Below are positions 7,246 through 52,872 of a stretch of DNA of 64,000 bases, in pieces. The translations under genes and the position numbers were made by a program. The notes beneath the pieces are model-generated. The model did not search any database. It saw only the letters and a program-made list of their open reading frames with translations, and had not been told where the DNA came from. Positions within the stretch are counted from its first letter, which is position 1, and every line of letters starts with the position of its first letter. Origin of the DNA: Candidatus Zixiibacteriota bacterium (GTDB lineage Bacteria; Zixibacteria; MSB-5A5; CAIYYT01); assembly GCA_040235515.1 (NCBI GenBank), contig JBECKX010000179.1, forward strand, positions 15,232 through 79,231, written 5' to 3'.

Positions 7246-7272
7246 TCGGGACAGCGGAGCTGGAGGACTGAG

Positions 7273-8691: not shown

Positions 8692-8701
8692 CGGTGCTTT
8701 T

Positions 8702-13713: not shown

Positions 13714-13741
13714 TTGGGGCGAGAGATTCAGGAGCTGAAGC

Positions 13742-14074
13742 ATGGGTGATTATTTCGATTCGAAGGATCTGGCGAAATTCGGCAAGATTGGCAGGGTCAA
13801 CAAGGAGCTCGCCGACAAATACTTCGAGTACTACAACAGCGTTATGCAGGAGGGCAACCTGAGCGCCCGCGAGAAGGCGCTGATTGCGCTCGCGGTAGCA
13901 CACACCCTGAAGTGTCCCTATTGCATCGATGCCTACTCCACAGCGTGCATGGAGAATGGAGCAGATGAGGAACAGATGAGTGAAGCCGTTCATGTGGCCG
14001 CCGCGATGTCGGCGGGCATAACGCTAGTCCACAGCGTCCAGATGCAAAATCATATCGACTCACTGATGGGTTAG
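13742..14074 (+). CDS. AhpD-like / carboxymuconolactone decarboxylase family protein (arsenosugar-cluster-associated peroxidase-like type)
   Basis: 110 aa with a CxxC motif (KCPYCID) in an AhpD-like helical core. It sits between the DUF2064 and ArsS-like genes, as in the described rSAM/selenodomain neighbourhoods. Confidence 0.6.
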   Translation: MGDYFDSKDLAKFGKIGRVNKELADKYFEYYNSVMQEGNLSAREKALIALAVAHTLKCPYCIDAYSTACMENGADEEQMSEAVHVAAAMSAGITLVHSVQMQNHIDSLMG

Positions 14075-14109
14075 TCGGTGGGGCGGTAGTTTGGAGATCG
14101 GAGCGTGAA

Positions 14110-18133: not shown

Positions 18134-18135
18134 GC

Positions 18136-18342
18136 GTGTCCGCGATTTTTCTGCTCATCGGTGCAAGCCTGCTGGTGGCGGTGGGATTCCTGGCGTTGTT
18201 CGTGTGGGCGGTCAGGAGCGGCCAGTATGAGGATACGGTCACCCCGAGTATGAGAATGGTGGTTGACGATGACGGCGCGGTGCCTGGCGGGCAGCACGGC
18301 GCTTCGGTGCAAAGAAAAGATAGCAGTAACAACCTGGAGTGA
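18136..18342 (+). CDS. ccoS: cbb3-type cytochrome oxidase maturation protein CcoS/FixS
   Basis: 68 aa with a single TM helix and a conserved WAVRSGQYED motif. It starts at GTG and lies between ccoI and ccoN. Confidence 0.75.
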   Translation: MSAIFLLIGASLLVAVGFLALFVWAVRSGQYEDTVTPSMRMVVDDDGAVPGGQHGASVQRKDSSNNLE

Positions 18343-18358
18343 TGGAGTGAGCTGACGC

Positions 18359-20491
18359 ATGGAAGTCGAACAATTTTCATACGACAATAAAATCGTCAGG
18401 TATTTCACCTACGCGACCGCCTTATGGGGCGCAGTAGGTATGTTGGTCGGGGTGATCGTCGCCCTGCAGATATTTATTCCGGAAGCGAATTTCGGTATCT
18501 CGTGGTTGACCTATGGCAGGCTCAGGCCGCTGCACACGAATGCTGTAATTTTCGCTTTCGTCGGCAACGGCATTTTCGCCGGCGTCTATTACTCGCTGCA
18601 ACGACTCTGCAAAGCGAGGATGTGGTCTGACCTGCTGAGCAAGCTGCATTTCTGGGGCTGGCAGTTGATCATCGTCTCGGCGGCGATCACTTTGCCACTC
18701 GGGTATACCACCTCGAAGGAGTACGCGGAGCTGGAGTGGCCAATCGATATCCTGATCGCGCTCGTCTGGGTGATTTTCACGGTCAACATGTTCGGAACGA
18801 TATTCAAGCGGCGCGAACGTCATATGTACGTCGCGATCTGGTTTTACATCGCGACCGTCGTGACGGTGGCGATGCTGCATATCGTTAACTCAATCGAGTT
18901 CCCGCTATCGTTGATGAAGAGTTATCCGGTTTACGCCGGAGTACAGGATGCGCTGGTGCAGTGGTGGTACGGCCACAACGCCGTGGCGTTCTTCCTGACC
19001 ACACCGTACCTGGGGTTGATGTACTACTTCGTGCCGAAGGCGGCGAACCGTCCGATATTCTCCTACCGGCTCTCGATCATTCACTTCTGGGCGCTGATCT
19101 TCATCTACATCTGGGCAGGCCCTCACCATTTGCTTTACACCTCACTCCCTGACTGGGCTCAGTCGCTCGGCACGGTGTTCTCGATCATGCTGATTGCTCC
19201 GTCCTGGGGTGGCATGATCAACGGATTGTTGACATTGCGTGGCGCCTGGGATCGAGTACGCACCGATCCGATTTTGAAGTTCTTCGTTGTAGCGATAACG
19301 GCTTACGGTATGGCAACTTTCGAGGGGCCGATGCTTTCGATAAAGAGCGTCAATGCTATCTCGCACTACACCAGCTGGACCATTGCCCATGTGCATGTGG
19401 GAGCGCTCGGCTGGAACGGATTGCTGACCTTTGGCATGCTGTACTGGATGGTGCCTCGTTTATTCAAGACGAAACTCTATTCGGTCAAACTGGCGAATTT
19501 GCACTTCTGGATATCGACGCTGGGGATTGCCTTCTATGCCATCCCGATGTATTTCGCCGGTTGGATGGAAGGATTGCTCTGGAAGCAGTTCACGCCTGAG
19601 GGTTTCTTGCAATACCCCAACTTCCTTGAGATCGTTACCCAGATCATCCCGATGTATGCGATTCGTGCATTCGGCGGCGCGCTTTACCTCTCCGGCGTAT
19701 TCGTGATGGCGTACAATTTGATCAAGACGATGAAATCGGGTGTGGCGGAGGACAACGAAGCTGCCGAAGCCCCGGCGTTGCCGAAGAAGTATCATGAGAA
19801 GGAAGTTCATCCATACCGTCACCGCTGGCTGGAGGCCAAGCCGGCACAGTTTATCGTGCTGACCTTTATCGCCGTGGCCATCGGCGGATTGATCGAATTC
19901 ATACCGACATTCATGGTAAAATCGAATGTGCCGACGATTGCGTCGGTACGCCCTTACACGCCGCTTGAATTGGAGGGTCGCGACATTTATATCCGCGAGG
20001 GATGCAACAACTGCCATTCGCAGATGATCAGACCATTTCGCTCCGAGACCGAGCGCTATGGTGAATACTCCAAGGTTGGTGAGTTCGTGTATGACCATCC
20101 GTTCCTCTGGGGTTCCAAGCGCACCGGACCTGATCTGCACCGTATCGGCGGCAAGTACCCCGATGCGTGGCATTATCAGCATATGGAGGATCCACGCTCG
20201 ATGTCGCCGGGATCGGTAATGCCGCCTTACCCGTGGTTGCTGACCAGCAAGCTTGACACCTCGCATACTCGCGACAAGATATCATTGATGCGATCGCTCG
20301 GAGCGCCATACAGCGATGGTTACGAGGAGCAGGCGATGGCCGACTTACAGGAACAGGCGGAGGGAATTTCCAAGGGGCTTGAGGAAGCGAAGATCATCAC
20401 CGACTGGGATTCCGAGATCGTGGCCCTGATTGCTTACCTGCAACGACTTGGAACCGATATCAAGGTAGAGGGGGCGCAGGCGGGATTATGA
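18359..20491 (+). CDS. ccoNO: cbb3-type cytochrome c oxidase, fused subunits I and II (CcoN-CcoO)
   Basis: 710 aa. The first ~470 aa form a polytopic heme-copper oxidase subunit I. The C-terminal part is the mono-heme CcoO (CNNCHSQMIRPFRSETERYGEYSKVGEF...GPDL). The fusion is typical of Bacteroidetes/FCB lineages. Confidence 0.9.
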   Translation: MEVEQFSYDNKIVRYFTYATALWGAVGMLVGVIVALQIFIPEANFGISWLTYGRLRPLHTNAVIFAFVGNGIFAGVYYSLQRLCKARMWSDLLSKLHFWGWQLIIVSAAITLPLGYTTSKEYAELEWPIDILIALVWVIFTVNMFGTIFKRRERHMYVAIWFYIATVVTVAMLHIVNSIEFPLSLMKSYPVYAGVQDALVQWWYGHNAVAFFLTTPYLGLMYYFVPKAANRPIFSYRLSIIHFWALIFIYIWAGPHHLLYTSLPDWAQSLGTVFSIMLIAPSWGGMINGLLTLRGAWDRVRTDPILKFFVVAITAYGMATFEGPMLSIKSVNAISHYTSWTIAHVHVGALGWNGLLTFGMLYWMVPRLFKTKLYSVKLANLHFWISTLGIAFYAIPMYFAGWMEGLLWKQFTPEGFLQYPNFLEIVTQIIPMYAIRAFGGALYLSGVFVMAYNLIKTMKSGVAEDNEAAEAPALPKKYHEKEVHPYRHRWLEAKPAQFIVLTFIAVAIGGLIEFIPTFMVKSNVPTIASVRPYTPLELEGRDIYIREGCNNCHSQMIRPFRSETERYGEYSKVGEFVYDHPFLWGSKRTGPDLHRIGGKYPDAWHYQHMEDPRSMSPGSVMPPYPWLLTSKLDTSHTRDKISLMRSLGAPYSDGYEEQAMADLQEQAEGISKGLEEAKIITDWDSEIVALIAYLQRLGTDIKVEGAQAGL

Positions 20492-20685
20492 TACACGATA
20501 TCTTCACATCGATTGAGGGAGTGGGGCTTTACCCCATCATCACACTGATTCTGTTCCTGGTGGTCTTTGTGGCGGTCGGTTTATGGGCGTTGTTTGCCAA
20601 CCGCGAATACCTGGACCACATGAAGCAACTACCACTAGAAGATTCCGACCTGAGCGTCGGAGTGGGAGAGCGGAAAGATGGCTGA
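20488..20685 (+). CDS. ccoQ: small single-TM protein in the CcoQ position of the cbb3 operon
   Basis: 65 aa with one TM helix. It overlaps the ccoNO stop and precedes ccoP. Confidence 0.5.
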   Translation: MIHDIFTSIEGVGLYPIITLILFLVVFVAVGLWALFANREYLDHMKQLPLEDSDLSVGVGERKDG

Positions 20686-21346
20686 GTATAAGGACGAACT
20701 GCTTGACCACGAGTATGACGGTATCCGTGAACTGGATAACGACCTGCCGCCCTGGTGGCTCTACATGTTCTATATCACGATCGCCTGGGGAGTACTCTAT
20801 TTCGCTTACTACCACGTTTTCGATATTGGCTATTCCTCAACCGATCAGTACATGGCGGAACTGGATCCGAAGTACACGCGCGATCAGAATCCCAATTACT
20901 CGCCGCCGAAGTTGATCCGGACGTATCATTCTCCCTGGTACAGTTCGCGCGGCGACGAGACACCTTACTCGATTGCGATGTCAGGCCCGCAGGCGGAATT
21001 CGTGGAAATGAACCGCGAGGATGAGCCTGAGGTAGATGCACTGACCGCTCCGGAAGCGCTTGCCGCCGGCGAACAGTTGTTCAAGAAGAACTGTGTGCAG
21101 TGTCACGGCGTCGCGGGTGAGGGCGGCATCGGGCCGAACCTCACAGATCAGTACTGGCTGCATGGCGCGGGGATCAACAATGTTCTTCGTACAATCAAAT
21201 ATGGTGTCCCCGCGAAGGGGATGATTGCCTGGCGCGGTTTTCTCTCACAGGAAGAGATCCACGAGGTCGCCAGCTACATCCTGACGTTGGAGGGCACCAA
21301 TCCTCCGAACGCCAAGGCCCCTCAGGGTGAGTTAGTTACTGAATAG
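20678..21346 (+). CDS. ccoP: cbb3 oxidase c-type cytochrome subunit CcoP (apparently mono-heme variant)
   Basis: 222 aa. The N-terminal TM helix has the CcoP-like DLPPWWLYMFY motif. A single CxxCH (CVQCH) is found; the usual second heme motif is absent. Confidence 0.7.
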   Translation: MAEYKDELLDHEYDGIRELDNDLPPWWLYMFYITIAWGVLYFAYYHVFDIGYSSTDQYMAELDPKYTRDQNPNYSPPKLIRTYHSPWYSSRGDETPYSIAMSGPQAEFVEMNREDEPEVDALTAPEALAAGEQLFKKNCVQCHGVAGEGGIGPNLTDQYWLHGAGINNVLRTIKYGVPAKGMIAWRGFLSQEEIHEVASYILTLEGTNPPNAKAPQGELVTE

Positions 21347-21422
21347 TCATGCATAGTCGCGCCGCCCGGCTGGAGATCCCTGCCGGCGCGGCCGCTTCCC
21401 TTGCTATTGGAGTGATGCTGCA

Positions 21423-22895
21423 ATGTCAGCTCCGCAGACCGACAAACCAGATTCTTACCGCGACCATATCTCGACAGTTGACGATTCCGGAAAGCGAGTA
21501 ATCCTCTATCCGACGAAACCGAAGGGGCGTTATCATCGGGCGCGCCTGATCGTCAGCTGGTTTCTGCTGGCATTTATGTTCGGGGCGCCATTCATCAAGG
21601 TGAACGGTCACCCGCTGATGCTGCTGAACGTATTCGAACGCAAGTTCGTGATCTTCGGCACAGCTTTCTGGCCACAGGATTTTTACCTGTTTGTCTTTGC
21701 GGTGCTCTCGTTTGTGGTGTTTATCGTTCTCTTCACGGTGATCTTCGGCCGATTGTGGTGCGGTTGGGCGTGTCCCCAGACGATTTTCATGGAGATGGTT
21801 TTCCGCAAGATCGAGTATTGGATCGAGGGCAACGCCGGCAAGCAGCGCAAGCTCGACCGCTCGCCCTGGACGGCCCAGAAGACTTTCAAGAAGCTCACCA
21901 AGCATGCAATCTTTCTCGCCATCTCGTTCCTCGTGGGCAACACGGTGGTTGCGTGGCTGGTTGGCGTCGAGAAGTTGCAGGAGTTGATCACCGACGGTCC
22001 CGGTGCACATCTCGGCGCGTTCATCGGCGTAGTCGTATTCAGTCTGATAACCTACGGCGTATTCGCACGCTTCCGCGAGCAGGTCTGCCTGATTGTGTGT
22101 CCCTACGGAAGACTTCAGTCGGTATTGCTTGACGACAGGTCGATTGTCGTGTCATACGACTTCAAACGTGGCGAGCCGCGAAAGCCGATGTCGCTGAAGA
22201 AGGATGAGACGCGCGAAGCGGGGGATTGCATCATGTGTAATTCGTGTGTCGATGTTTGCCCCACCGGCATCGATATTCGCAACGGAACGCAGCTTGAGTG
22301 CATCAACTGCACGGCCTGTATGGATGCCTGCGACACCGTAATGGACAAAATCGGATTTGAACGCGGGTTGGTTCGCTATGCCTCTCACAAACGAATCCTG
22401 GAGGGGCTGCGACTAAAGGTCACGCCGCGCATGATCGGCTATTCGGCGGTGCTGGTAGCGCTCTTGACGCTGCTGGTGTTCTTATTGCTGGGACGAAGTG
22501 ATTTCGAGACTACGATCTTCCGTACCCCCGGAGTGATGTTCGAGGAACTGGAGAATGGAAACATCCGTAATCTCTATTCGATCAAGGTGATCAATAAGAC
22601 GTTTGATCCTTACGACGTGGAACTGAAGCTCAAGGATATCGAGGGTTCGATCAGTATGGTTGGCGGCGATATCACGCTGCCGCGACAGGGGCTTGCCGAA
22701 ACAGCGTTCTTTGTGGATATTCCACAACGGGTGCTGAAGTCATCGCGTCAAGATATCGTGATCGATGTGTTTGCCGGCGACAGGTTGGTGGAGACGGTCG
22801 AATCGACGTTCTTAGGCCCGCGCGTGAGCGTGCATCGGGATGACGTTGCTGATCCGGAAGAAAAAGAATCAGACAAGGCGAACGATGGAAACTGA
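21423..22895 (+). CDS. ccoG: cbb3 oxidase accessory protein CcoG/FixG (membrane 4Fe-4S polyferredoxin)
   Basis: 490 aa. It has TM helices, CGWACPQT, ferredoxin motifs (CIMCNSCVDVCP, CINCTACMDACD) and a C-terminal beta-rich domain typical of FixG. Confidence 0.85.
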   Translation: MSAPQTDKPDSYRDHISTVDDSGKRVILYPTKPKGRYHRARLIVSWFLLAFMFGAPFIKVNGHPLMLLNVFERKFVIFGTAFWPQDFYLFVFAVLSFVVFIVLFTVIFGRLWCGWACPQTIFMEMVFRKIEYWIEGNAGKQRKLDRSPWTAQKTFKKLTKHAIFLAISFLVGNTVVAWLVGVEKLQELITDGPGAHLGAFIGVVVFSLITYGVFARFREQVCLIVCPYGRLQSVLLDDRSIVVSYDFKRGEPRKPMSLKKDETREAGDCIMCNSCVDVCPTGIDIRNGTQLECINCTACMDACDTVMDKIGFERGLVRYASHKRILEGLRLKVTPRMIGYSAVLVALLTLLVFLLLGRSDFETTIFRTPGVMFEELENGNIRNLYSIKVINKTFDPYDVELKLKDIEGSISMVGGDITLPRQGLAETAFFVDIPQRVLKSSRQDIVIDVFAGDRLVETVESTFLGPRVSVHRDDVADPEEKESDKANDGN

Positions 22896-23376
22896 CAGGA
22901 AAACTGAGAGCAAGACCGCAAAGCCGAAGGACCGGACGTGGGGAATCGGTATAGCCGTGTTCTACTCGTTGTTCGTGGTAGTGACCTTGGGCCTCGTCTT
23001 CTACGCCACGTTGCAGAAGTTCGATCTGGTGGCGGAGAACTACTACGAGGATGGGGTCAGGTATCAGGATCGCATCGACCAGAAGCGCCTGGCCGAGTCT
23101 GCAGAGTACAAGCTCGAGATCAAGTATGATCGGGCGAATCGCGCAGTGAATCTGCAATTCCCCGAGAATCTGGCGACAGACTCTATTTCGGGCAAGGTCG
23201 TGTTGTTCAGACCGTCAAACGCTTCACTCGATCGGCACTGGGAGTTGCAGGTGGATACGGATGGTTCACAGCGACTCGACCTCAAGGGCGCCAGCAAGGG
23301 AGTCTGGAAAGTGATGGTCTACTGGAAGGCCGGGAGCACCGACCTGTACAGTGAAAAGTCAATCTACGTCGAGTAA
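22885..23376 (+). CDS. ccoH: FixH/CcoH family protein
   Basis: About 163 aa. It has an N-terminal TM helix followed by a FixH-like domain, and lies directly after ccoG with a small overlap. The ATG at 22885 is preferred over the ORF-track start at 22840. Confidence 0.65.
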   Translation: METDRKTESKTAKPKDRTWGIGIAVFYSLFVVVTLGLVFYATLQKFDLVAENYYEDGVRYQDRIDQKRLAESAEYKLEIKYDRANRAVNLQFPENLATDSISGKVVLFRPSNASLDRHWELQVDTDGSQRLDLKGASKGVWKVMVYWKAGSTDLYSEKSIYVE

Positions 23377-23406
23377 TAGTTAGCTCGCGAGCACGAGAGA
23401 GAGCTT

Positions 23407-24141
23407 ATGGAACTGTGGACTGCATTTATCATCGGGCTGGTCGGTTCGCTCCACTGCGTTGGGATGTGTGGACCGATAGTCGCCGCGCTGCCGGTAGATA
23501 CTCGCAGTCGCTGGTCAATGATTGCGGGACGGATGCTCTACAACCTGGGTCGTGTCGTGACTTATGCCCTTCTGGGTGTGCTCTTCGGGCTGGTCGGACG
23601 CGGGTTCTTCATGGGCGGTTACCAGCAGGTAGTCTCGATCGTGTTGGGGGCTGCGATCATAATCGCGGTGTTGTTGCCGGGCAGACTGACGCAGCAAGTT
23701 CTCAATACGCTGGGTCTGAACAGGGCGTATGGCATGCTCAGCCGCAGTTGGGGGAGGCTCTTCAAGAACAGCAGCAAACGCTCCCTTTTCGCGATCGGCA
23801 TACTCAACGGATTCCTGCCGTGCGGGTTCGTTTATGTCGGACTGGCGGGCGCGGTGTCGACAGGCAGCATTATTGAGGGTGCGGCTTACATGGCACTGAT
23901 CGGATTGGGGACAATCCCGATTTTGTTCGCGCTTGGTATCGCCGGAAACTTCGTTGGCGCGCGCGTAAAACGCAGTTTCGCCCGTGCGCTGCCGGTCTTT
24001 GCAATCGTGCTCGGTTTATTGTTCGTAGCGCGCGGTCTGAATCTCGGCATACCATACATCAGCCCGAAGATGAAGCACAACGTCGTGACAGAGCAAACCG
24101 AGACAAGCTGCTGTGATCCGGCAAAGCACCAGACTCACTAG
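23407..24141 (+). CDS. DsbD_2/TauE-SafE-like polytopic membrane protein with HCxxMCGP motif, cbb3-cluster associated
   Basis: 244 aa with about 6 TM helices. The N-terminal LHCVGMCGPI motif is characteristic of the DsbD_2 family, which is often found at the end of Bacteroidetes cco clusters. Confidence 0.55.
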   Translation: MELWTAFIIGLVGSLHCVGMCGPIVAALPVDTRSRWSMIAGRMLYNLGRVVTYALLGVLFGLVGRGFFMGGYQQVVSIVLGAAIIIAVLLPGRLTQQVLNTLGLNRAYGMLSRSWGRLFKNSSKRSLFAIGILNGFLPCGFVYVGLAGAVSTGSIIEGAAYMALIGLGTIPILFALGIAGNFVGARVKRSFARALPVFAIVLGLLFVARGLNLGIPYISPKMKHNVVTEQTETSCCDPAKHQTH

Positions 24142-27104: not shown

Positions 27105-27350
27105 GTTGATTCCAGGGCCGTTAATCCTTCTTCAAAACACTATCTACAAAATTGAGCGTTGAGTCGGTCTTCGCAAAGGTGAAATCGCTGCGGCGGATCA
27201 GCGGAGAGGCACGAGACTGCCGCTTCGAGAGCCTGCGAAATTTGTCTTAAATAAATGTCACGAGAGGATAGAAATTTTTACGAAAATCGTTTTAATTGGG
27301 AAGCTGAACTAACGTTCGTGGCCAAAACTTACATCTTTAGGAGCAATGCA

Positions 27351-28022
27351 ATGCAACAAGAGCAAGCAGCAATGGAAAAGCCGGTCGGACTCCCCCGTAT
27401 TGGTTCACCAGCCCCTCATTTTGAAGCCAAAACCACTCACGGGACGTTAAGACTGGAGGATTTCAAAGGCAGTTGGTTGATACTTTTTTCGCACCCTGCC
27501 GATTTCACTCCGGTCTGCACGACTGAGTTCATGGGGTTTGCCGAGATTTATCCGGAGTTGCAGAAGCTTAACACCCAGCTCATCGGCCTCAGTGTCGACA
27601 GCGTTTATTCCCACATCGCCTGGGTTCGCAATATCGAGGAGAAGATGGGCGTGAAGATCCAATTCCCGGTCATCGCGGACCTTGATATGAAGGTGGCCAA
27701 AGCCTACGGCATGATCCACGAGGGCGAAAGCAGTACCGAGACGAGCCGTGCGGTGTTTGTCATCGACGACAAGCAGGTTGTGCGCGCGATTATCTACTAC
27801 CCGCTGAGCACCGGTCGCAACATGGATGAGATTCTGCGTCTCGTCAAGGCGCTCCAGACTGTGGATGCGAACGGCGTTGCCACGCCGGCGAACTGGCGTC
27901 CGGGTAACAAGGTGATCGTTCCGCCGGCGCAAACTCAGGAAATGGCTGAGGAACGCACGCAGGACAGCAGTTTGGAATGCACCGATTGGTACTTCTGCAA
28001 GAAAACTCTGGCAGGCGCATAG
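27351..28022 (+). CDS. peroxiredoxin (1-Cys/Prx6-like, AhpC/TSA family)
   Basis: The peroxidatic Cys motif is FTPVCTTEF. An ATG at 27351 lies 8 nt downstream of an AGGAG RBS. The protein is about 224 aa. Confidence 0.85.
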   Translation: MQQEQAAMEKPVGLPRIGSPAPHFEAKTTHGTLRLEDFKGSWLILFSHPADFTPVCTTEFMGFAEIYPELQKLNTQLIGLSVDSVYSHIAWVRNIEEKMGVKIQFPVIADLDMKVAKAYGMIHEGESSTETSRAVFVIDDKQVVRAIIYYPLSTGRNMDEILRLVKALQTVDANGVATPANWRPGNKVIVPPAQTQEMAEERTQDSSLECTDWYFCKKTLAGA

Positions 28023-32488: not shown

Positions 32489-33220
32489 ATGATTGGAATC
32501 AAACCTCGATTGAACTCGCCATTTAGAACCGGTCTGCTTGCAGCCGTATTCAGTTTCCTGATCGCTGCGACAGCAGTTGCGCAGGTGACACCGGCAGACG
32601 GCGAAGGCAAGCCAGGCTCGGTAGATAGACGGATAGCGCCCTCTGCGGATCAGATTCAGCCGCTGCTGATTGGTGCGACTGTACCCTCGGTGCAGGTGGT
32701 AACGGCGGATGGAGAAGCGGTTGATCTGAAGGAGATAGTATCCGGGCAGCCAACGATCCTGATCTTCTATCGCGGAGGTTGGTGACCATACTGCAACTCG
32801 CAGTTGGGTCAACTGCAAGAGATTGAGCCGCAGCTAATTGAGCTTGGCTACCAGATTGTCGCGGTCAGCGCCGACCGCCCTGCGAAGATACGTGAGACGC
32901 TGGCGAAGAGCGAGTTCCGGTACAAGCTCTACTCGGACAGTGCGGCGAATGCGACATCGGCCTTCGGAATAGCGTTCCGGGTCGAGGAGGACTATGTCGA
33001 GCGGGTGAAGGCGTTCGATATTGATATCGAAGGTGCTGCCGGCAACAAGAATCATATCCTGCCGGTACCAGCCGTCTTCATCCTGGACGATACAGGTTTG
33101 ATAAAATTCGAGTATGTAAATCCCAGATACCAGGTTCGCATCCATCCTGAGGTTCTGCTGGCTGCCGCAACGGCTGAAGCCCGGCAGTGGTCAAAGGAGA
33201 AGTCGAAGGAGAAGAAGTAG
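32489..33220 (+). CDS. secreted peroxiredoxin-like/thioredoxin-fold selenoprotein with in-frame UGA (Sec) at 32783-32785, redox motif W-U-P-Y-C
   Basis: ORFs 32489..32785 and 32804..33220 share one frame and are separated only by a TGA. Read through, the sequence is FYRGGW-U-PYCNSQLGQL, which matches the F(Y)RGxWCPxC motif of Prx-like redoxins with Sec in place of the first Cys. It has an N-terminal signal peptide. A 7-bp stem/3-nt loop hairpin begins 14 nt downstream of the UGA. The second ORF's start is only a TTG artefact. Confidence 0.75.
32800..32816 (+). promoter_or_regulatory. candidate bacterial SECIS hairpin (GCAGTTG-GGT-CAACTGC) downstream of the in-frame UGA
   Basis: The arms are perfect inverted repeats with a 3-nt G-rich loop, 14 nt after the UGA. 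The position fits a bacterial SECIS. Confidence 0.45.
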
Positions 33221-34358: not shown

Positions 34359-34946
34359 TCATGACTTACGGGCGATCAACTGGATCACTGCTGCGGTACC
34401 GCTGTGGTGGCGGCCCTCGTTGACTTCACGTTCCAGCTCCTCCGCGTGTTCGATTGCCAGCCCCTTAAAATCGGACATGGCTTCCGTGAGGCTGTAGAGC
34501 ATGGTGGGGTCCTTGGGCCCACCGGTGTTATACTTGAGTTGAGCGGTGGTGAAGAACTCGAGCAGAAAGACGCCGTTCGGGGCAAGACCCCGGATAGAGT
34601 CGGCAAAGACCCGGCTGCGGAGATCGCGCGGGAGGTGACAGAAGATGGCGACAATGCCGTCCCAGGCGCCCGGTTCGATTTTGAATTCGGCAAGATTGGC
34701 CTCGATCGTTTCAATCTCGACACCTTTCTCCTCAGCCAGTCTGCGTGCCTTCTTCAGACCGACGCCAGACTGGTCCACCGCAGTCACCTGATAGCCTTTG
34801 ATTGCGAGAAACACACCGTTGCGCCCTTCACCGGCGCCGATTTCTAGCACGCGGCCTTTGGGGATTTTGTTGAAATGTGCGGCCAGGAACTGATTCGGTT
34901 CGGTGCCGTAAACATACTCAGGATTGGAATAGCGTTCGTCCCACAT
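34359..34946 (-). CDS. class I SAM-dependent methyltransferase (TehB-like)
   Basis: 195 aa. Motif I reads VLEIGAGEGRNGVFLA, with an acidic residue after beta-2 (VTAVDQS). Confidence 0.7.
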   Translation of the reverse strand: MWDERYSNPEYVYGTEPNQFLAAHFNKIPKGRVLEIGAGEGRNGVFLAIKGYQVTAVDQSGVGLKKARRLAEEKGVEIETIEANLAEFKIEPGAWDGIVAIFCHLPRDLRSRVFADSIRGLAPNGVFLLEFFTTAQLKYNTGGPKDPTMLYSLTEAMSDFKGLAIEHAEELEREVNEGRHHSGTAAVIQLIARKS

Positions 34947-34957
34947 GGTCTAGATGA

Positions 34958-36169
34958 TTACTCCTTCAGCCTGCTCCGCACTTTGATTTCGCCGTGGAGG
35001 GTGCGATGAACCGGGCACATGTCGGCTATCTCGAGCAGGCGGTCGCGCTGACCGGCATCAAGATCACCAGTGACTTCAATGACGCGCGTGATCTCATCCA
35101 CCTTGCCTTTCCTGTTCTCGCAATCCTCACACTCCTCCGCATGGATCTTGTTGTGATCGAGGTGCACCGTGACCTTATCGACGGGCCATTGCTTGCGGTC
35201 GGCATACATTCGGATCGTCATCGCAGTACAGGTGCCGAGCGCGGCATTGAGGTACTCATAGGGTGACGGACCGAAGTCATTGCCGCCATACTTCTGCGGT
35301 TCATCCGCGATCAGTCGGTGCTTGCCGATCTGGACTTTGGTGGTGTAGTGATCGGTTCCGATCTCGCAGACTACATCATGGTCCGTCTCGAGCTGCCACG
35401 GTTCCGGCCTGCCGACATAACGCGCGGCCCACGCGCCAATTACATGGCCGACATAGAAGGAATCGCTACGGCGTTTGATCAGATGGTCGGCGCCATCGAG
35501 GCTGATGTATGACTTGTTTTGCTGTGCTGCTTTGAAGATGCGGGTGGCATTGTCGATCGAGACGACTTCATCATCGGGCGAGTGAATCACGAGCAGAGCC
35601 GCGTTGAGGTTGCGAATTGCTTCGTTGCTCTCGATAGAGGCGACATCATCCATGAACTGCCGGGTGATGGTGAATTCGCGTCCGGCGATATTGACGGTCG
35701 CTTTGCCATCCTCCGAGAAACCGGCGATCTTCGATGAGAGCAACCTGCCAACATGCTCCGGCGAATGCGGTGCGGCGATCGTCGCTACGGCCCGCACGGA
35801 GGAAATCCTGCCACCGGCTATCAGCACCGCCGCCCCGCCGAGAGAATGACCGAGCAGCAGTTTAGGTGCGTCGTATTCCGATTCGAGGAAGTCGGCGGCG
35901 GATACCAGATCCTCCACATTCGAGGAGAAGTTGGTGTCCTGAAAATCCCCCTCACTCTCACCGATACCGGTAAAATCAAAGCGCAAAACCGCGAAGCCGT
36001 GAGCGCAGAGTGAAGACGCTATATTGTAGATCGTGCTGTGATCTTTACCGCAGGTAAAACAATGGGCGAAGATGGCGTAGCTGTGTGGCGGCTGATCGGT
36101 GGGAAACTGCAGCCAGGCCGCGAGCTGTGCACCACCCTGATTTTGGAACGATACTTTTGTGACTCTCAT
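34958..36169 (-). CDS. bifunctional alpha/beta hydrolase / OsmC-family protein
   Basis: 403 aa. The N-terminal alpha/beta hydrolase has a GHSLGG nucleophile elbow. The C-terminal ~140 aa are OsmC/Ohr-like, ending CPVHRTL. Confidence 0.7.
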   Translation of the reverse strand: MRVTKVSFQNQGGAQLAAWLQFPTDQPPHSYAIFAHCFTCGKDHSTIYNIASSLCAHGFAVLRFDFTGIGESEGDFQDTNFSSNVEDLVSAADFLESEYDAPKLLLGHSLGGAAVLIAGGRISSVRAVATIAAPHSPEHVGRLLSSKIAGFSEDGKATVNIAGREFTITRQFMDDVASIESNEAIRNLNAALLVIHSPDDEVVSIDNATRIFKAAQQNKSYISLDGADHLIKRRSDSFYVGHVIGAWAARYVGRPEPWQLETDHDVVCEIGTDHYTTKVQIGKHRLIADEPQKYGGNDFGPSPYEYLNAALGTCTAMTIRMYADRKQWPVDKVTVHLDHNKIHAEECEDCENRKGKVDEITRVIEVTGDLDAGQRDRLLEIADMCPVHRTLHGEIKVRSRLKE

Positions 36170-36437: not shown

Positions 36438-38717
36438 ATGGAGGCCGTTTTGACGCAGAAGCCCTACCACCGAACTACGCCGGTTGCCCGCAGGATGCAG
36501 GCGCCAGGTGTCACGTTATCAGCATTCCTTCTCCTCACTCTGTTATTCTCCGCGACCAGTCTATTCGCGCAGCCGATCGAGAGTTGCGGAACGCGGATTG
36601 GCCCTGATGAAGTAGATGAGTTGTTCAAACACACGCAGGAGCTAATCGGCATGAGCCAGAAGCGTGCCGGAGAAACATACAAGATTCCGATCCAGCACCA
36701 TGTCGTGCGGCAATCGAATGGCAGCGGTGGTTTCACCCAGGCTGAAGTCGACAACGCTATGCTGGAGGGAAATGCGCTCTTCGTACAGGTTAATGTCGAG
36801 TTGTATAATTATGGCCCGGTTGATTTCATCGACGATGATTTCTTCTTTTTCGACTGCTCCAGTTCCGCGCAGTGGGACAGCCTGCGCAACACGAATGTTG
36901 AGCCGAACGCGATAAACATCTTCTGGGTGCCTAGTTCCTCGGGATTTCCCTACTGCGGTCTGTCATCCTTTACGACCAGTACCACGCAGGGTATCGTCAT
37001 GAACAACGCCTGCGGTGGCATCGGACCGAGCAACTCAACCATGGTGCATGAAATCGGCCACTACTTCAATCTCTACCATACGCACGAAACGGCTTTCGGC
37101 GATGAATGTCCGAGCGGCGACAATTGCGGCTTCACGGGGGATCTCGTCTGCGACACACCCGCCGATCCGAATCTGCAGGGCCAGGTTACCCCTGAGCCTG
37201 ACTGCATCTACACCGGCGCTGATCCGCCGCCGATCGGATGTGATGCCACCCCCTATGCGCCGCAGACGGAAAATATCATGTCTTATTCTACCAAGGCCTG
37301 CCGCGACCTCTACACCGCGGGACAGACCGACAGGTTCCGGCTCACCCTCGAGAATGACCGCACGGAACTGGCGGTGCAGGTTGGTGACCTCTACTATTTT
37401 CCCACATCGTTCGGCGCCCTGAACGTGAGTGTCGGGGGAATGGTGGATACGACGGTCACTCTCAGAAACGAGGGGGGTGCTGCGATCACGGTAAATTCTA
37501 TCAGCGTCATGAGTGGAATGGTCGCCGTGAGCGGCCCGGTGCCGACGACGCTTAATCCGGGCGAGACACAGGATTACGTGATCAGTTTCGATGCCACCGG
37601 GTTTGCCGTGCCGTGCGACCTGGGGTCGTACGATGATATCGTGACATTCACCACTACTGACGCCGAGCGGCCGGTATTCGATATGGCAGTTACCGCCGTC
37701 GTGGGACTGGAGGTACCGGCACAGAGTTCCTACTCTTTCGGACCTAACTGCCTGATGCTCGATGTCGGTAACACACCGGGATTCAGCGACCTGAACGACT
37801 TCGTGAGTGATGTGCTCTACGACGGCTCTCTGCTGGTTGGTGTTATCAACGGATCGGACACGACGGTCTACCAGGACCTGTTCGGGCGGGCCGACTACTC
37901 GATCATCGATGGTTTCACACAGGGGGTTGATTCGGTCGGTCGCACAACCCAGACGCTGCAATTCCTCAGCAACGATGACAAGATATACGGTAGTGTGAAG
38001 TACAGCTATGGGGCCAACACAGCGGGTCTTGATAGCTGCAAGATCATCCAGGTCGAGTATACCCTGAATAATGCCTGCGATACTTCCATGACAATCGCCG
38101 CTGGAATTTATGGGGACTTTGACATCGATGGTTCCGGCAGCAATAATGCCAGGATATCACTTGCGCAGAACATGGTCTATGTCGAACAAACTTCGACAAA
38201 TCACCTGGCCGGATTTGTCAATCTGACCCCTGATTCTCCGACGCGAGGACTCGTTCCGGTTTCGAATCCGACGTCGATTTATCCCACCGGCCAGTACGAA
38301 AACAATGAGGCGTATGCTTCGCTGGTGGGGGGCAATGGTCCGGAGATAACCGCCACCGACGTATCCGCGCTACTGGCTTTCGGTGAGTACGAGCTGCCTG
38401 CCGGAGGAAGCATCACTTTTGCCGGGGCGATTGTGGTGTCATCCAGCTCACTGGCTGATCTGCAATCGAGTGCGCAGGCAATTCGGCTATTCTACTCGCC
38501 ACCTGCGTATCTCTGCGGTGACGCTGATGGTAACGACACTGTCACGATTGCCGATGCGGTCTTTCTGATCAACTTCATTTTCGGAGGCGGACCGGCTCCA
38601 TTTCCGCCGCTTGCCGGGGACGCCAACTGCGACGGTTCCATCTCGATCACCGATGTCGTGTATATAATCAACTACATCTTCGGTGGAGGTCCGGCGCCTT
38701 GCGCCTCCTGCAAGTAG
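36438..38717 (+). CDS. secreted zinc metallopeptidase (metzincin-like, HEIGHYFNLYHTHE) with C-terminal double dockerin-like module
   Basis: 759 aa with a signal peptide. It carries a HExxHxxNxxH-type zinc motif. The last ~66 aa are Cys-bounded with two Ca-loop/helix repeats (CGDADGNDTVTIADAVFLINFIFGGGPAP...GDANCDGSISITDVVYIINYIFGGGPAPCASCK). Confidence 0.7.
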   Translation: MEAVLTQKPYHRTTPVARRMQAPGVTLSAFLLLTLLFSATSLFAQPIESCGTRIGPDEVDELFKHTQELIGMSQKRAGETYKIPIQHHVVRQSNGSGGFTQAEVDNAMLEGNALFVQVNVELYNYGPVDFIDDDFFFFDCSSSAQWDSLRNTNVEPNAINIFWVPSSSGFPYCGLSSFTTSTTQGIVMNNACGGIGPSNSTMVHEIGHYFNLYHTHETAFGDECPSGDNCGFTGDLVCDTPADPNLQGQVTPEPDCIYTGADPPPIGCDATPYAPQTENIMSYSTKACRDLYTAGQTDRFRLTLENDRTELAVQVGDLYYFPTSFGALNVSVGGMVDTTVTLRNEGGAAITVNSISVMSGMVAVSGPVPTTLNPGETQDYVISFDATGFAVPCDLGSYDDIVTFTTTDAERPVFDMAVTAVVGLEVPAQSSYSFGPNCLMLDVGNTPGFSDLNDFVSDVLYDGSLLVGVINGSDTTVYQDLFGRADYSIIDGFTQGVDSVGRTTQTLQFLSNDDKIYGSVKYSYGANTAGLDSCKIIQVEYTLNNACDTSMTIAAGIYGDFDIDGSGSNNARISLAQNMVYVEQTSTNHLAGFVNLTPDSPTRGLVPVSNPTSIYPTGQYENNEAYASLVGGNGPEITATDVSALLAFGEYELPAGGSITFAGAIVVSSSSLADLQSSAQAIRLFYSPPAYLCGDADGNDTVTIADAVFLINFIFGGGPAPFPPLAGDANCDGSISITDVVYIINYIFGGGPAPCASCK

Positions 38718-39044
38718 GGCGCAGCAGATTTTGATAACCAGAGAGCCGGTGTTGTCACAACATCGGCTCTTTTTGTATGCGCGGGGCTTCTGCCTGAAGG
38801 TCGGGATGGCAATTTCAGCGCCTATCATGTCTGTTTCAATCCGGAACGTCGTTTTTGACGAAGTAGTTCGCTCCGAGATACTTCAGTAACTTTTCCACCT
38901 GACGATAATCTCTACATAGCATTGGCTCGCCCAATTCGAGCCGACACGCTCGGTCGGGGCAGGTGCGTTCATACCGCCGTGTCGGAAACAACATCCAGAA
39001 AAACTGACTCGTTCAGGGTAGAGTCAAAGGAGGCGGAAAACGAC

Positions 39045-42000
39045 ATGGGGATTACAACCAGAAGCGGCAGCGGTGAGCCCGCGCACGAGACATCCACGCA
39101 CGACATTGACAGACAGCATGATGCCGCAGTCATGAACGATCAAGGTAGTGGTGAGGCTACTTTCTCCGACTGTCTCCTCAAGTGTTCTCAAGTACTGGCG
39201 AATTCAGGCACGGATGATCGCGACAGTATCGAGGTAGCGCTGCGTGCACTGGTAGAGGCTACGCGATTCGACCGCATTCGCATCATCGAAAACATTTCGG
39301 ACGATGCGAGCGCCCGCTATGCGCAGTTGACCTGCGCAGTCGTGGGGGAAGGTGAGTCGCGCGAGGCCGGGCAGCAGTTGCAGTTCGAGTATGACGGCGA
39401 ATGCGCCGCATGGAGTTCGATGCTCGACAAGAGCGGCGCTGAGAATGGTGCTGCTGTCGAAATCCCGGACTCACTCAGGGAGAAGCTGAAGGCTGAAGAT
39501 GCCAGGGAGATGCTGGCGTTTCCGCTCTTTTCCAGTGGTACCTGGATCGGGCTGATCACCTTTGAACAACTGCAGGACTCAGGCGAATGGGTACCGGGTG
39601 AGACCGGGTTACTCACGGCGGTAGCCGGAATGCTGGGCAGTCATCTCGGCAGGCGCAGGGCGATGTCGAGCCTCCGGCGCCAGGTTGCGCTGCAAACGGT
39701 GCTGGGTACAGTCGCCAAGCGTCTGGCCCAAACGCAATCAACTTCAATCGGTGCAGAAATCGACGCTTCACTTGAGGAGATGGGGCAGGCCTGCGGGGCC
39801 GATCGCGCCTCTATCTTCAAGTTGAATCGCTATGATGGTCTCGTAACCAATATCCATGAATGGTGCGACGAGGGAGTTCCCGCACGGATTTCGCAATCGC
39901 TCGATTTCTCACTGCGTGGTGATCTCCCCTGGTTAGCCCGCCAACTGCACGAATTCAAGCATATATCGCTGGCTTCGCTGGAACAACTCCCGCAGGGCAC
40001 GGAGAAAGAGCGTGCCTGGCTTGAAGCCCGCGATGTCGAGTCGATCCTGATCATCCCGCTGCTGATAGACAATTACCTCTTCGGCTTTCTCTGTATCGAA
40101 ACCGTGAATGAGCAGCGCGCCTGGCGGAGTGAGATATCCTCGACGCTGCATGTCTTCGGTGAACTGGTAGCAGGCGCCATCAAGCGTAAAGAGATCGACG
40201 ATGCAATCAAGTCAAGCGAGCGACGCTACAGGCTGATCGCCGACAACGCTACGGAAATCATCACGGTCTATGACAAAGAACACAGCCTGGTGTGGGCATC
40301 CCCCACATTCGGTGAGCTGACCGGCGTGTCTGCGGACACATTCGTCGGCAGGGAGATCAGTGAGCTGATTTTCGAAGAGGATCTCGATTCATTCCGTCGC
40401 CTGCAGGCATTAACGCTGAAGGGAGCGGACGGAGAACGGGCGCGGGTACGGATCGCCACCAAGCGTGGTGACTGGTACTGGCTTGAGTTAACCGGCAAGC
40501 CGTTCTCGGGTGCATCGGCAGGCTCGGAGGATCAGTACATCCTGATCGGGCGCAGCATTGACCATCACACGCGCGTGGAGGAGACGCTGCGCCGTAACCT
40601 GAGCTTCATGCAGAGAATTCTGGACACGATCCCCGACCCGATCTACTTCAAGGATCAGAACCTGAACTACCGATTGGTAAACAAGGCGTTCGAGGATTTC
40701 CTTGGCCGGTTCAAGCGAGACATCATCGGCAAGAGCACTTTAGACTTCTGGGAGCCAGAGGTGGCGAACCTCTTCATAGAGATGGATAAAGCGCTGCTGT
40801 TGAAGCCCGGTGTCCAAACGCACGAGACTGAAGTCATCAGAGGGGACGGATCGAAATCGCTCATGATGCTGCACCGTGCATCATTCGCAGACGAGAATGG
40901 GGAGATTCAGGGCGTTCTGGGAATCGGCAGGGATATCTCGGAGCGGAACCGCAGCGAGCAAGCATTGCGGGATCTTGAAGCGCGTCACAAACAGATTCTG
41001 AATGCGATTTCGGATATCATCATTGTGAAGAGTCCCAGCTCACGAATCACCTGGGCAAACACCGCATTCATGGACTATTACAATCTCTCCGAAGAGGACC
41101 TGTTCGACTATATCGACTCGACGTTTAACGATGCCGCGACCACGCAACGTTATCTGGAAGCAGATCGCCGGGTAGTCCAGAGTGGCAAAACTGTTGTGAT
41201 CGATGAGGAGCCTATCACGCGGCATGACGGCGAGGTTCGACTCTTCAATACCGTTAAATCACCGATTTTCGACTCATCGGGAGCGGTTACGGCGATCGTA
41301 GCGGTCTGCAGAGATATTACGAACAGCAAGATTACTGAGCGTGCGCTGGAAGAGAGCAACAGGCTATTCATGACGCTGATCGGCAACCTGCCGGGAATGG
41401 TCTACCGTTGCAAACCAGACGATGAGCGTACGATGCTCTACGCCTCCAATGGCTGCATCAACCTGACGGGCTACACGCCATCCGAACTGACCCATAACCG
41501 CAGGGTCACCTTTGCCGCCCTGATTCACCCGGAAGATATCGCGAAGGTAAGACGCGCGGTCAAACGGGCCGTTGAGCAGCAGAGCACCTACCAGGTAACC
41601 TACCGCATCAATGCCGCGGATGGGAGTACGCGCTGGGTCTGGGAACAGGGAGCGGTAGAGCCGATCACCAATTCTGACGAGTTGTGTCTTGAAGGTTTGA
41701 TCCTCGATATCACGGATAAGAAAGCCGAAGAAGAGAGCCGCCTGCGCCTTGCCACCGCTGTTGAGCAGGTGGCCGAGGCCATTATGATCATGAACTATGA
41801 TGGCCAGATCGAGTATGTTAACCCCGGATTCACGCAGGTCACAGGTTACAGCTTCGAAGACGCGCTGGGTCGCGACCCCATATTCCTGTCGAAGGGTCTG
41901 CACGATGACGCCCACTTCACGCAGTTGTGGGCTACGATCAAGTCGGGCAAAGCCTGGAAGGGGCGCATGAAGAACATGCACAAGGAGAACCGCGTAATCG

Positions 42001-42935
42001 AGTGCGACGCGACGATTTCTCCGGTGCGTGACGGTAGCGGCAAGATTACGAATTTCGTGGCGGTGGAGCGCGATGTCACCGAGATGGTGAATCTCGAGGG
42101 CCAGTTGCGCCAGGCACAGAAGCTGGAGTCTGTCGGTTCGCTGGCAGCCGGCATCGCACATGAAATCAATACGCCGATCCAGTTTGTGGGGGACAATACG
42201 CATTTCCTCGCGGACGCCTTCCTGGATATCAACAAAGTACTCGAGAAGGCCCAGTTGATGATCGAGGAAACCAAGCCTGAGGATCCTTGCTCAGTAGCGT
42301 GCAAGGAACTGCGCGATGCGGTTGCGAACTGCGATGTGGGATTCTATCGCGAAGAGATACCGAGCGCGATCGACCAAACGTTGCAGGGTGTTGACCGAGT
42401 CGCGACGATCGTGCGGGCGATGAAAGAGTTTTCGCATCCAGATACCAGGGAGAAGACACCGATCGAGGTCAATAAGGCGATCACCACCACGCTGACGGTG
42501 GCCCGGAACGAGCTCAAGTACGTTGCGGATGTTGAAACCGAGTTCGGTGAGAATCTGCCGGCTGTGATGGGCTATCCGGGCGAGTTGAACCAGGTATTCC
42601 TCAACTTGCTGGTGAATGCTTCGCACGCGATCGCCAAAGTTGTGGGTGAGGGTTCGGGTGAGAAGGGGAAGATCACCGTGCGCACCTATGAAGAGGAGGA
42701 CTACCTGGTGGTTGAGGTGCGGGACACGGGATGCGGAATCAAGCTGGAGGATCGCGATCGTATCTTCGACCCATTCTACACGACCAAGCCGGTAGGCAAG
42801 GGAACCGGGCAGGGTCTGGCGATAGCCCGCTCGGTAGTGGTGGATAAGCATGGTGGAAAGATCGACTTCGAAACGGAGATCGGTCGCGGCACCACATTCT
42901 TCGTACGGCTACCATTAAGCGCTGAAGGGACATGA
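39045..42935 (+). CDS. multi-sensor histidine kinase (GAF + multiple PAS/PAC + HisKA + HATPase_c)
   Basis: The ATG at 39045 has an AAGGAGG RBS 10 nt upstream and is preferred over the ORF-track start at 38922. At least 5 PAS-like repeats are present. The H-box is AAGIAHEINTP and the C-terminal ATPase motifs are GxGxG (TGCGI, GKGTGQGL). Confidence 0.8.
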   Translation: MGITTRSGSGEPAHETSTHDIDRQHDAAVMNDQGSGEATFSDCLLKCSQVLANSGTDDRDSIEVALRALVEATRFDRIRIIENISDDASARYAQLTCAVVGEGESREAGQQLQFEYDGECAAWSSMLDKSGAENGAAVEIPDSLREKLKAEDAREMLAFPLFSSGTWIGLITFEQLQDSGEWVPGETGLLTAVAGMLGSHLGRRRAMSSLRRQVALQTVLGTVAKRLAQTQSTSIGAEIDASLEEMGQACGADRASIFKLNRYDGLVTNIHEWCDEGVPARISQSLDFSLRGDLPWLARQLHEFKHISLASLEQLPQGTEKERAWLEARDVESILIIPLLIDNYLFGFLCIETVNEQRAWRSEISSTLHVFGELVAGAIKRKEIDDAIKSSERRYRLIADNATEIITVYDKEHSLVWASPTFGELTGVSADTFVGREISELIFEEDLDSFRRLQALTLKGADGERARVRIATKRGDWYWLELTGKPFSGASAGSEDQYILIGRSIDHHTRVEETLRRNLSFMQRILDTIPDPIYFKDQNLNYRLVNKAFEDFLGRFKRDIIGKSTLDFWEPEVANLFIEMDKALLLKPGVQTHETEVIRGDGSKSLMMLHRASFADENGEIQGVLGIGRDISERNRSEQALRDLEARHKQILNAISDIIIVKSPSSRITWANTAFMDYYNLSEEDLFDYIDSTFNDAATTQRYLEADRRVVQSGKTVVIDEEPITRHDGEVRLFNTVKSPIFDSSGAVTAIVAVCRDITNSKITERALEESNRLFMTLIGNLPGMVYRCKPDDERTMLYASNGCINLTGYTPSELTHNRRVTFAALIHPEDIAKVRRAVKRAVEQQSTYQVTYRINAADGSTRWVWEQGAVEPITNSDELCLEGLILDITDKKAEEESRLRLATAVEQVAEAIMIMNYDGQIEYVNPGFTQVTGYSFEDALGRDPIFLSKGLHDDAHFTQLWATIKSGKAWKGRMKNMHKENRVIECDATISPVRDGSGKITNFVAVERDVTEMVNLEGQLRQAQKLESVGSLAAGIAHEINTPIQFVGDNTHFLADAFLDINKVLEKAQLMIEETKPEDPCSVACKELRDAVANCDVGFYREEIPSAIDQTLQGVDRVATIVRAMKEFSHPDTREKTPIEVNKAITTTLTVARNELKYVADVETEFGENLPAVMGYPGELNQVFLNLLVNASHAIAKVVGEGSGEKGKITVRTYEEEDYLVVEVRDTGCGIKLEDRDRIFDPFYTTKPVGKGTGQGLAIARSVVVDKHGGKIDFETEIGRGTTFFVRLPLSAEGT

Positions 42936-47202: not shown

Positions 47203-47296
47203 TGGCGGAGTGGCAGGGATTCGAACCCTGGAGACGCTTTTGGCGCCTACACACTTTCCAGGCGTGCTCCTTCAGCCAGACTCGGACACCACTCCG
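47203..47296 (-). tRNA. tRNA-Ser (anticodon GGA), type II, CCA encoded
   Basis: Acceptor GGAGTGG/CCACTCC, anticodon loop CTGGAAA, long variable arm, T-arm GGTTCGAATCC and a 3' CCA. Confidence 0.85.
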
Positions 47297-52817: not shown

Positions 52818-52872
52818 ATCAGATACCTCTTAAATTTCTCTGGAAATATAGAAATCGAACTCTTCTCCGCAA

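Follow-up and report, generated by a model that had tools for sequence, protein, structure and literature searches.

The window analysed here, a stretch of 64,000 nucleotides (nt) from contig JBECKX010000179.1 of an uncultured Candidatus Zixiibacteriota bacterium, carries at 32489..33220 on the plus strand one gene, encoding one domain, that is interrupted by a single in-frame TGA. This gene is very probably a genuine selenoprotein gene in which the TGA encodes selenocysteine (Sec). An earlier note on this DNA had proposed that a UGA-recoded Sec redoxin was split in two by the calling of open reading frames (ORFs), and its domain, its homologues, the recurrence of the TGA in other genomes and a downstream hairpin all support this proposal. 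The two ORFs, 32489..32785 (98 amino acids (aa), ATG start) and 32804..33220 (138 aa, TTG start), share one frame. As the note had stated, and as both the ORF list and the translation bear out, they are split only by the TGA at 32783-32785, which is the sole stop between them and is followed by six sense codons. The complete selenoprotein coding sequence has 243 sense codons, with UGA as codon 99, and ends at a TAG stop (33218-33220). The read-through translation reads ...ILIFYRGGW before the TGA and PYCNSQLGQLQ... after it; with longer flanks, ...PTILIFYRGGW is followed across the stop by PYCNSQLGQLQEIE..., and the peptide at the UGA position, written with Sec, is GGW-U-PYCNSQLGQLQEIEPQLIELGYQIVAVSADR.

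When Cys was put for the stop, a Pfam search of the read-through protein returned a single AhpC/TSA domain (Prx-like thioredoxin fold; PF00578, E = 7e-23, 81.4 bits against a cut-off of 26) at residues 61-206, which corresponds to 32669..33106 on the plus strand and runs across the UGA; Redoxin (PF08534) matched as well. A protein search with the same product gave 3,303 relatives. The top matches were nearly all ~190-250 aa long with both halves present, among them a few longer domain fusions. The exception was the best match, P0001, which is 99% identical and only a 138-aa C-terminal fragment: it is the public gene call of this 87,147-bp contig and covers the C-terminal piece alone. In an alignment with 26 full-length homologues (~215 aa, all single proteins) the motif F-Y-R-G-G-W-C-P-x-C was invariant, and the TGA fell on its first Cys. 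The motif FYRGGW-U-PYCN with a UxxC centre, which the note had read across the stop, is thus borne out, and the active site U99-P100-Y101-C102 (32783..32794, plus strand, with TGA 32783-32785 as the Sec codon) occupies the CPxC column of the homologues. Of the 34 invariant columns in this alignment, 22 lie 3' of the TGA; the window gene keeps every one of these 22, and its sequence carries no sign of decay past the TGA.

The N-terminus M1-A31 (32489..32581, plus strand) is probably a signal peptide of the Sec export pathway that would be cleaved by signal peptidase I between AVA and Q. Read by eye, the translation has a basic n-region (K5, R7, R13) and a 16-residue hydrophobic core ahead of this site, and the N-termini of the homologues show an equivalent hydrophobic stretch in the alignment, in agreement with the signal peptide that the note had called. 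For the fold, the AlphaFold2 model of a Cys homologue, P0003 (61% identical), was used. It forms one compact thioredoxin-type domain (predicted local distance difference test 89, predicted TM-score 0.83), with low confidence in the region matching the signal peptide, and places the CxxC between a beta-strand and the N-terminus of helix alpha1. A split at the TGA would therefore break the strand-CxxC-helix unit. When the P0003 model was compared with the PDB by Foldseek, the top 50 matches were nearly all peroxiredoxins (Prx), BCP or AhpE proteins, with BCP/PrxQ the best. Fusions also occur among the Cys homologues, to nitroreductase (P0050), rhodanese (P0064) and thioredoxin-like (P0107) domains.

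The pattern FYRGGW-TGA-P[YF]C was back-translated and searched for in one genome per bacterial or archaeal species. This gave at least 120 loci, against ~0.02 expected by chance from the degeneracy of the pattern, in Poribacteria, Desulfobacterota, Acidobacteriota (Thermoanaerobaculia), Chloroflexota, Nitrospirota, Ignavibacteria, Planctomycetota and others. Wherever no contig end intervened, the frame stayed open for 103-139 codons or more past the TGA, and the sequence there was clearly homologous. The subfamily of the window gene, which bears a signal peptide and the signature U-PYCN-x-QLGQLQ-x-IE, contributed 36 to ~39 Sec loci at 42-66% identity; Sec forms of this secreted "QLGQLQ" Prx-like subfamily are spread over many phyla. 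The nearest Sec relative among the loci listed is L030, from an Ignavibacteria metagenome-assembled genome (MAG; 66% aa identity), and in the family tree the window redoxin pairs with the Ignavibacteria Sec form, beside Ignavibacteriae Cys forms.

Fourteen nt past the TGA (32786-32799), the note had placed a 7-bp hairpin at 32800-32816, and we confirmed it in the sequence: GCAGTTG-GGT-CAACTGC forms a perfect 7-bp stem with a 3-nt loop. It spans the last base of the S104 codon and the codons Q105-L106-G107-Q108-L109-Q110, and its apical loop begins 21 nt past the UGA. The further claim that this hairpin is a bacterial Sec insertion sequence (SECIS) is supported by covariation, by its specificity for Sec forms and by published criteria, and we assign 32800..32816 on the plus strand (GCAGUUG/CAACUGC, loop GGU) as the upper stem-loop of the element. 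A hairpin in the same register was present in loci of the window subfamily and in the Poribacteria subfamily (U-PFCR-x-QLGELQ), with differing sequences; the stem variants were GCAGUUG/CAACUGC, GCAACUG/CAGUUGC, GCAGCUG/CAGCUGC, GCAGCUC/GAGCUGC, GCAACUC/GAGUUGC and GGAGCUG/CAGCUCC. In an ungapped alignment of 54 distinct Sec-form sequences, 97.4% of the cells were paired, and four of the seven pairs showed compensatory changes, with both partners altered in 47 cells. In 500 column shuffles the pairing and the covariation score of the real alignment were never attained. As a control, the 3' arm was shifted by 1-3 nt, which lowered the pairing to 15-54%, and RNAalifold independently gave the same helix. 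In L030 the 17-nt hairpin is identical, though flanking synonymous sites differ. An extended SECIS (32797..32819, plus strand), with the pairs C32797-G32819 and U32798-A32818 below a C/A mismatch, is weakly suggested: these lower pairs are not conserved across orthologues, and the 23-28-nt context still folds with the hairpin.

A 2026 review gives as criteria for bacterial SECIS elements (bSECIS) a loop of 3-9 nt, an upper stem of 4-16 bp, a UGA-to-loop distance of 16-37 nt, a G at the first or second loop position, most often with G or U after it, and a minimum free energy (MFE) of -7.5 kcal/mol or lower (PMC13188914). The window hairpin has a GGU loop, 7 bp and a distance of 21 nt, and its energy is -8.9 to -10.2 kcal/mol with 3-5 flanking bases. 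It fits this general bacterial consensus and not the form specific to E. coli. The SECIS of E. coli fdhF has a 17-nt upper stem-loop that begins 11 nt after the UGA, with a bulged U in the stem and GU in the loop. The window stem, in contrast, is perfect, lacks the bulged U and is separated from the UGA by 14 nt, not 11. An Rfam search at the hairpin gave only noise (E >= 0.67), which carries little weight since no Rfam family for such an element was found.

Since the hairpin sits in conserved codons, a control with Cys forms was needed. The codons of Gln (CAR) and Leu (YUG) can pair with each other, and the loop comes from the Gly codon GGN; hence the Q-L-G-Q-L-Q codons are self-complementary and part of the pairing could come from the peptide alone. 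Under the codon usage of the window, a full 7-bp stem is expected for S-Q-L-G-Q-L-Q in ~5.5% of cases. A single hairpin is thus only mildly surprising, and its significance comes from conservation across Sec orthologues. Metagenomic Cys forms encoding exactly C-P-[YF]-C-N-x-Q-L-G-[QE]-L were compared with Sec forms of the same peptide. The full stem was found in 48 of 59 Sec forms against 7 of 38 Cys forms (Fisher p ~9e-10) or, counting unique 48-mers, in 44/54 against 4/31, and the mean energy of the fixed hairpin was -7.8 kcal/mol in Sec forms and -2.9 kcal/mol in Cys forms. A stricter bSECIS filter of our own was passed by 68 of 121 Sec loci, 1 of 45 Cys loci and 6 of 121 shuffled sequences; many of those that failed it were at -7.2 or -7.4 kcal/mol and so narrowly missed the threshold. 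Together, these results show that selection acts on the codon choices of the hairpin specifically where TGA takes the place of the Cys codon, as predicted by a SECIS and not by a pseudogene.

Across the loci L001-L120, at least four sequence subfamilies were seen, with differing architectures and hairpin registers. In Poribacteria forms the frame is open for 260-300 codons ahead of the TGA and for only 108 codons beyond it, the N-termini of Chloroflexota forms are very short (~50-80 codons), and L046 extends 358 codons past the TGA, which suggests a C-terminal fusion. The hairpins of other subfamilies lie at a 23-nt spacing with GUCAU or GUCUU loops, or at a 16-nt spacing with an AGUUG loop. 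The presence of hairpins in other registers suggests independent origins.

Several observations weigh against reading 32489..33220 as a selenoprotein gene. No selA, selB, selC, selD or tRNA-Sec was found within the 64-kb window by ARAGORN, Rfam and Pfam/NCBIfam searches; for SelA, SelB and SelD the search covered 40 of the 42 listed genes, leaving out 38922..42935 (1337 aa) and 59408..62356 (982 aa). The only tRNA genes that ARAGORN reported in the window were two tRNA-Ser. Nor was a second selenoprotein gene found in the window, either in a scan for in-frame TGAs with long flanking frames or when 519 TGAs were examined for a bSECIS-like hairpin and a nearby Cys: the reported site was the only one in a real coding frame, the others being out-of-frame shadows of annotated genes. 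The bare 17-mer hairpin reaches -7.4 kcal/mol, which just misses -7.5, and passes only with its flanks. The single-sequence MFE fold of 32783-32842 favours another structure (-19.1 kcal/mol, z = -2.3). The Sec loci come from related genomes, so that sequence counts do not equal independent events, and in a sequence from an uncultured MAG a single-base assembly error is formally possible. The capacity of the organism to insert Sec is an assumption, and from the sequence evidence we strongly infer Sec insertion itself. As for the competing fold, its helices (UGACC/GGUCA and ACUGC/GCAGU) were rejected: they were only 74% paired in the 54 Sec forms, which did not exceed the shuffles, and were broken in most orthologues.

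Two further loci touch on the Sec machinery. The 93-nt tRNA at 47203..47295 (minus strand) was considered as a mis-called tRNA-Sec and rejected, since it proved to be a normal tRNA-Ser(GGA) with a long arm; a filter artefact had hidden it from Rfam when the whole window was run at the gathering threshold, and it scores 46.7 bits when searched alone. At 5992..9574 (plus strand) a pyridine-nucleotide-disulfide oxidoreductase (417 aa), a membrane 4Fe-4S protein (472 aa) and a DUF547 protein stand in a row. The 417-aa oxidoreductase weakly matches the "N-terminal to SelD" model TIGR03169 (62 bits against 310), which is not evidence of selD.

The best surviving alternative to a selenoprotein gene is an ordinary Cys-type gene in which TGY became TGA by nonsense mutation or by a sequencing or assembly error, leaving a truncated, inactive product. 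Only one substitution separates TGC or TGT from TGA, the window shows no Sec machinery, and the public call consists of the 138-aa fragment only; besides, QLGQLQ makes a full hairpin by chance in ~5% of cases, as some Cys forms do. However, such a lesion would have had to strike the exact codon at which at least 120 other genomes also have TGA and to coincide with a hairpin specific to Sec forms. There has been no further decay, as the frame is open to the normal C-terminus with all 22 downstream invariant residues kept. Moreover, L030 has the same TGA and an identical hairpin at 66% protein identity, which indicates that this state is old and maintained. We consider a lesion or error improbable. 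Less probable again is that the UGA is read through without Sec, by a near-cognate tRNA (Trp or Cys), by Cys-tRNA(Sec) or because UGA is reassigned. The column needs a Cys-like residue, so that Cys insertion would also give an active enzyme, and it is from comparison that we infer Sec insertion at UGA-99. Against this, the hairpin is conserved, has the spacing of a SECIS and carries a G-G/U loop, as is characteristic of SelB-dependent recoding, and the family is an established selenoprotein family. Reassignment of UGA (to Trp or Gly) was rejected: the stops of the 42 well-supported window genes are 15 TGA, 17 TAG and 10 TAA, so UGA is a normal stop and the code is standard. Last, the division in the ORF list and in the public call into a 98-aa secreted peptide and a 138-aa protein starting at TTG 32804 is effectively refuted and has next to no probability as two separate genes, since one Pfam domain and one predicted fold cross the junction, the TTG start lies inside the hairpin, and, P0001 from this contig apart, the 26 aligned homologues and the top matches listed are all single proteins with no halves among them.

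A rough neighbour-joining tree that covered 183 members of the subfamily shows at least 12 switches between Sec and Cys, and Sec forms occur in at least eight phyla, interspersed with Cys forms. The Cys forms have on average ~5 of the 7 pairs in register. In five Cys (TGC) genes, L130, L131, L150 and L163 from metagenomes and P0071 from Armatimonadetes CG2_30_59_28, the hairpin GCAACUG-GGG-CAGUUGC is perfect and in the SECIS register, and this Cys clade adjoins the Sec form L113 on the tree. Its hairpin could be a relic after Sec-to-Cys reversion or a pre-adapted state. A tentative explanation, which we hold to be less than even, is a latent SECIS: the conserved helix-alpha1 peptide Q-L-G-(Q/E)-L may give every Cys-form gene a near-complete hairpin, and a Cys gene would then need one TGY-to-TGA change and one or two synonymous changes to become a Sec gene. 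Such a path would account for the interspersion of Sec and Cys forms and their frequent switching, as seen on a tree that is crude and in sampling that is biased. The coincidence of the SECIS with a self-complementary conserved peptide is the mildly new point of the analysis and, if true, could lower the barrier from Cys to Sec.

The window gene is an unannotated member of a known selenoprotein family; family, motif and SECIS type were all established before. The "Prx-like thiol:disulfide oxidoreductase" (PF00578, UxxC/UxxU) is listed as a high-confidence predicted selenoprotein family and attributed to the 2004 prokaryotic selenoproteome study of Kryukov and Gladyshev, with WP_010940744.1 of Geobacter sulfurreducens as example (PMC13188914). 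In 2006 it had eight members in sequenced genomes, mostly in Geobacter, Syntrophus and Desulfotalea, and three Cys-to-Sec events were inferred (PMC1794560); the GOS metagenomes contained 225 Sec and 2,740 Cys sequences of "Prx-like 1, pfam00578, UxxC" (PMC2398784). The window protein shares with this family PF00578, a UxxC with Sec first, many Cys homologues, a bSECIS just past the UGA and repeated Cys-to-Sec transitions. Its assignment rests on the PF00578 score, the UGA on the redox Cys, the orthologues with the same UGA and the bSECIS, and not on the Geobacter sequence. It differs from the wider family in belonging to the signal-peptide-bearing subfamily "CPYCNxQLGQLQxIE". The value of the finding is thus an annotation correction and not a discovery, and knowledge of selenoproteins is unchanged.

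Other Prx-like and thioredoxin-like proteins resemble the window protein in part. PrxU of Eubacterium acidaminophilum (PF00578, TxxU) is a bacterial selenoprotein with the same Pfam family and the Prx fold, but its Sec is the peroxidatic residue of PxxxTxxU, whereas the Sec of the window protein lies three residues earlier and a Cys stands at the peroxidatic-equivalent position. In addition, the conserved Pro is replaced by Arg95, and the PrxU model of NCBIfam (NF040737) does not match. ResA, TlpA and StoA also work outside the cytoplasm, and in them, too, helix alpha1 begins with the W-C-x-x-C active site; among PDB sequences ResA 4nmu matches best (E = 4e-7), with its CxxC on the UxxC. Unlike the window protein, however, they have Cys, identity is ~20% and the window scaffold is nearer to BCP/PrxQ; NCBIfam scores are far under the cut-offs (31 against 170 for ResA, 27 against 123 for DsbE). 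The BCP/PrxQ structures (3hjp, 2cx3/4gqf) are the best structural matches to the P0003 model (Foldseek E ~1e-10, TM 0.78-0.83 on target), but they are only 17-22% identical, the window protein has no PxxxTxxC, and insertions in its family that BCP lacks spread the match over 178-185 aligned columns against targets of 150-160 residues. The best NCBIfam match is the SelL-related redox protein NF040769, which has a Prx-like fold and is associated with selenoproteins; membership was rejected at 46 against 120 bits.

The position of the Sec was compared between the two structural relatives. Aligned to ResA 4nmu, W-U-P-Y-C falls on W-C-K-P-C, so that U99 takes the first, attacking Cys position. Aligned to ApBCP 2cx3, C102 falls on the peroxidatic Cys, U99 on the Ser/Thr of PxxxT/SxxC and R95 on the conserved Pro. 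In the note, Sec stood in for the peroxidatic Cys or the resolving one, and for a peroxiredoxin this does not hold: C102 matches the peroxidatic Cys and U99 the Thr/Ser. The canonical Prx motif PxxxT/SxxC(U) is absent, as Pro and Thr are missing and Sec is not peroxidatic. Judged on the P0003 model, the fold is nevertheless a peroxiredoxin-type thioredoxin fold. These structure alignments and the BCP/PrxQ-like fold point to an enzyme with a Prx scaffold and a thioredoxin-like redox centre, not to a canonical peroxiredoxin.

The product would be an exported Prx-like thiol:disulfide oxidoreductase of ~212 residues in its mature form, with U99-P-Y-C102 as putative redox centre. In the mechanism that we propose, SelB.GTP.Sec-tRNA(Sec) would bind the hairpin at 32800-32816, so that UGA-99 would be read as selenocysteine and not as a stop, and the N-terminal signal peptide would take the protein out of the cytoplasm. 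There, the selenolate at the N-terminus of helix alpha1 would attack a substrate disulfide, or possibly a hydroperoxide. U99 and C102 would then form a selenenylsulfide, to be re-reduced by a thiol-reducing system of the envelope. The most likely chemistry would be thiol-disulfide exchange in the cell envelope, with peroxide reduction as a possible activity.

The neighbours of the selenoprotein gene are a PhzF-family gene in divergent orientation and, downstream, a DUF2884-like gene, and no obvious operon partner for 32489..33220 was found among the flanking genes. A promoter and terminator scan gave no terminator-like site and a single promoter-like match, on the wrong strand and inside the gene. 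Three redox or stress genes lie within ~5 kb: a Prx6-type 1-Cys peroxiredoxin with an N-terminal extension of ~48 aa (27255..28022, plus strand), a TehB-like S-adenosylmethionine (SAM) methyltransferase of the tellurite/selenite-methylating family, with a sub-threshold score (34359..34946, minus strand), and an alpha/beta-hydrolase-OsmC fusion (34958..36169, minus strand) whose OsmC part has a weak match to the NCBIfam model "OsmC-related (seleno)protein" (63 against 95 bits).

Further upstream, 15665..24141 (plus strand) is a complete cbb3-type oxidase cluster with a CcoI-like P-type ATPase, a fused CcoN-CcoO (710 aa, 18359..20491), CcoP, CcoG/FixG and FixH. It also includes a DsbD_2-family membrane protein (23407..24141), which could supply thiol oxidoreductases of the envelope with reducing equivalents; that the selenoprotein is among them would be pure speculation. 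The fused CcoNO is 83-89% identical to a few MAG proteins and ~75% identical to proteins of Zixibacteria, Calditrichota and Ignavibacteria. Large secreted proteins with Por_Secre_tail or dockerin domains are encoded at 51792..54963 (minus strand), 36438..38717 (plus strand) and 56022..58967 (minus strand), and two window proteins have sorting domains of type-9 secretion. The CcoNO identities, these sorting domains and the tree position of the redoxin indicate a bacterium of the FCB (Fibrobacteres-Chlorobi-Bacteroidetes) group. The selenoprotein gene implies that an uncultured member of this group, from a lineage akin to Zixibacteria, Calditrichota and Ignavibacteria and with a cbb3 oxidase and type-9 secretion cargo, uses selenocysteine. 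Because the public call is only the 138-aa fragment, its redox repertoire and its selenium dependence are under-reported.

The radical SAM protein ArsS is encoded at 14110..15105 (plus strand; TIGR04167, "arsenosugar biosynthesis radical SAM (seleno)protein", 430 against 300 bits). The note had taken it for the non-Sec form of its family, and its ORF indeed has no internal stop; the genome, which seems to use Sec in other genes, has the non-Sec form here. A glycosyltransferase-like protein of the TIGR04282 family (13063..13713, plus strand; 186 against 134 bits) forms an arsenosugar biosynthesis pair with ArsS, and three glycosyltransferase genes (9620..13070) lie directly upstream of this pair (13063..15105).

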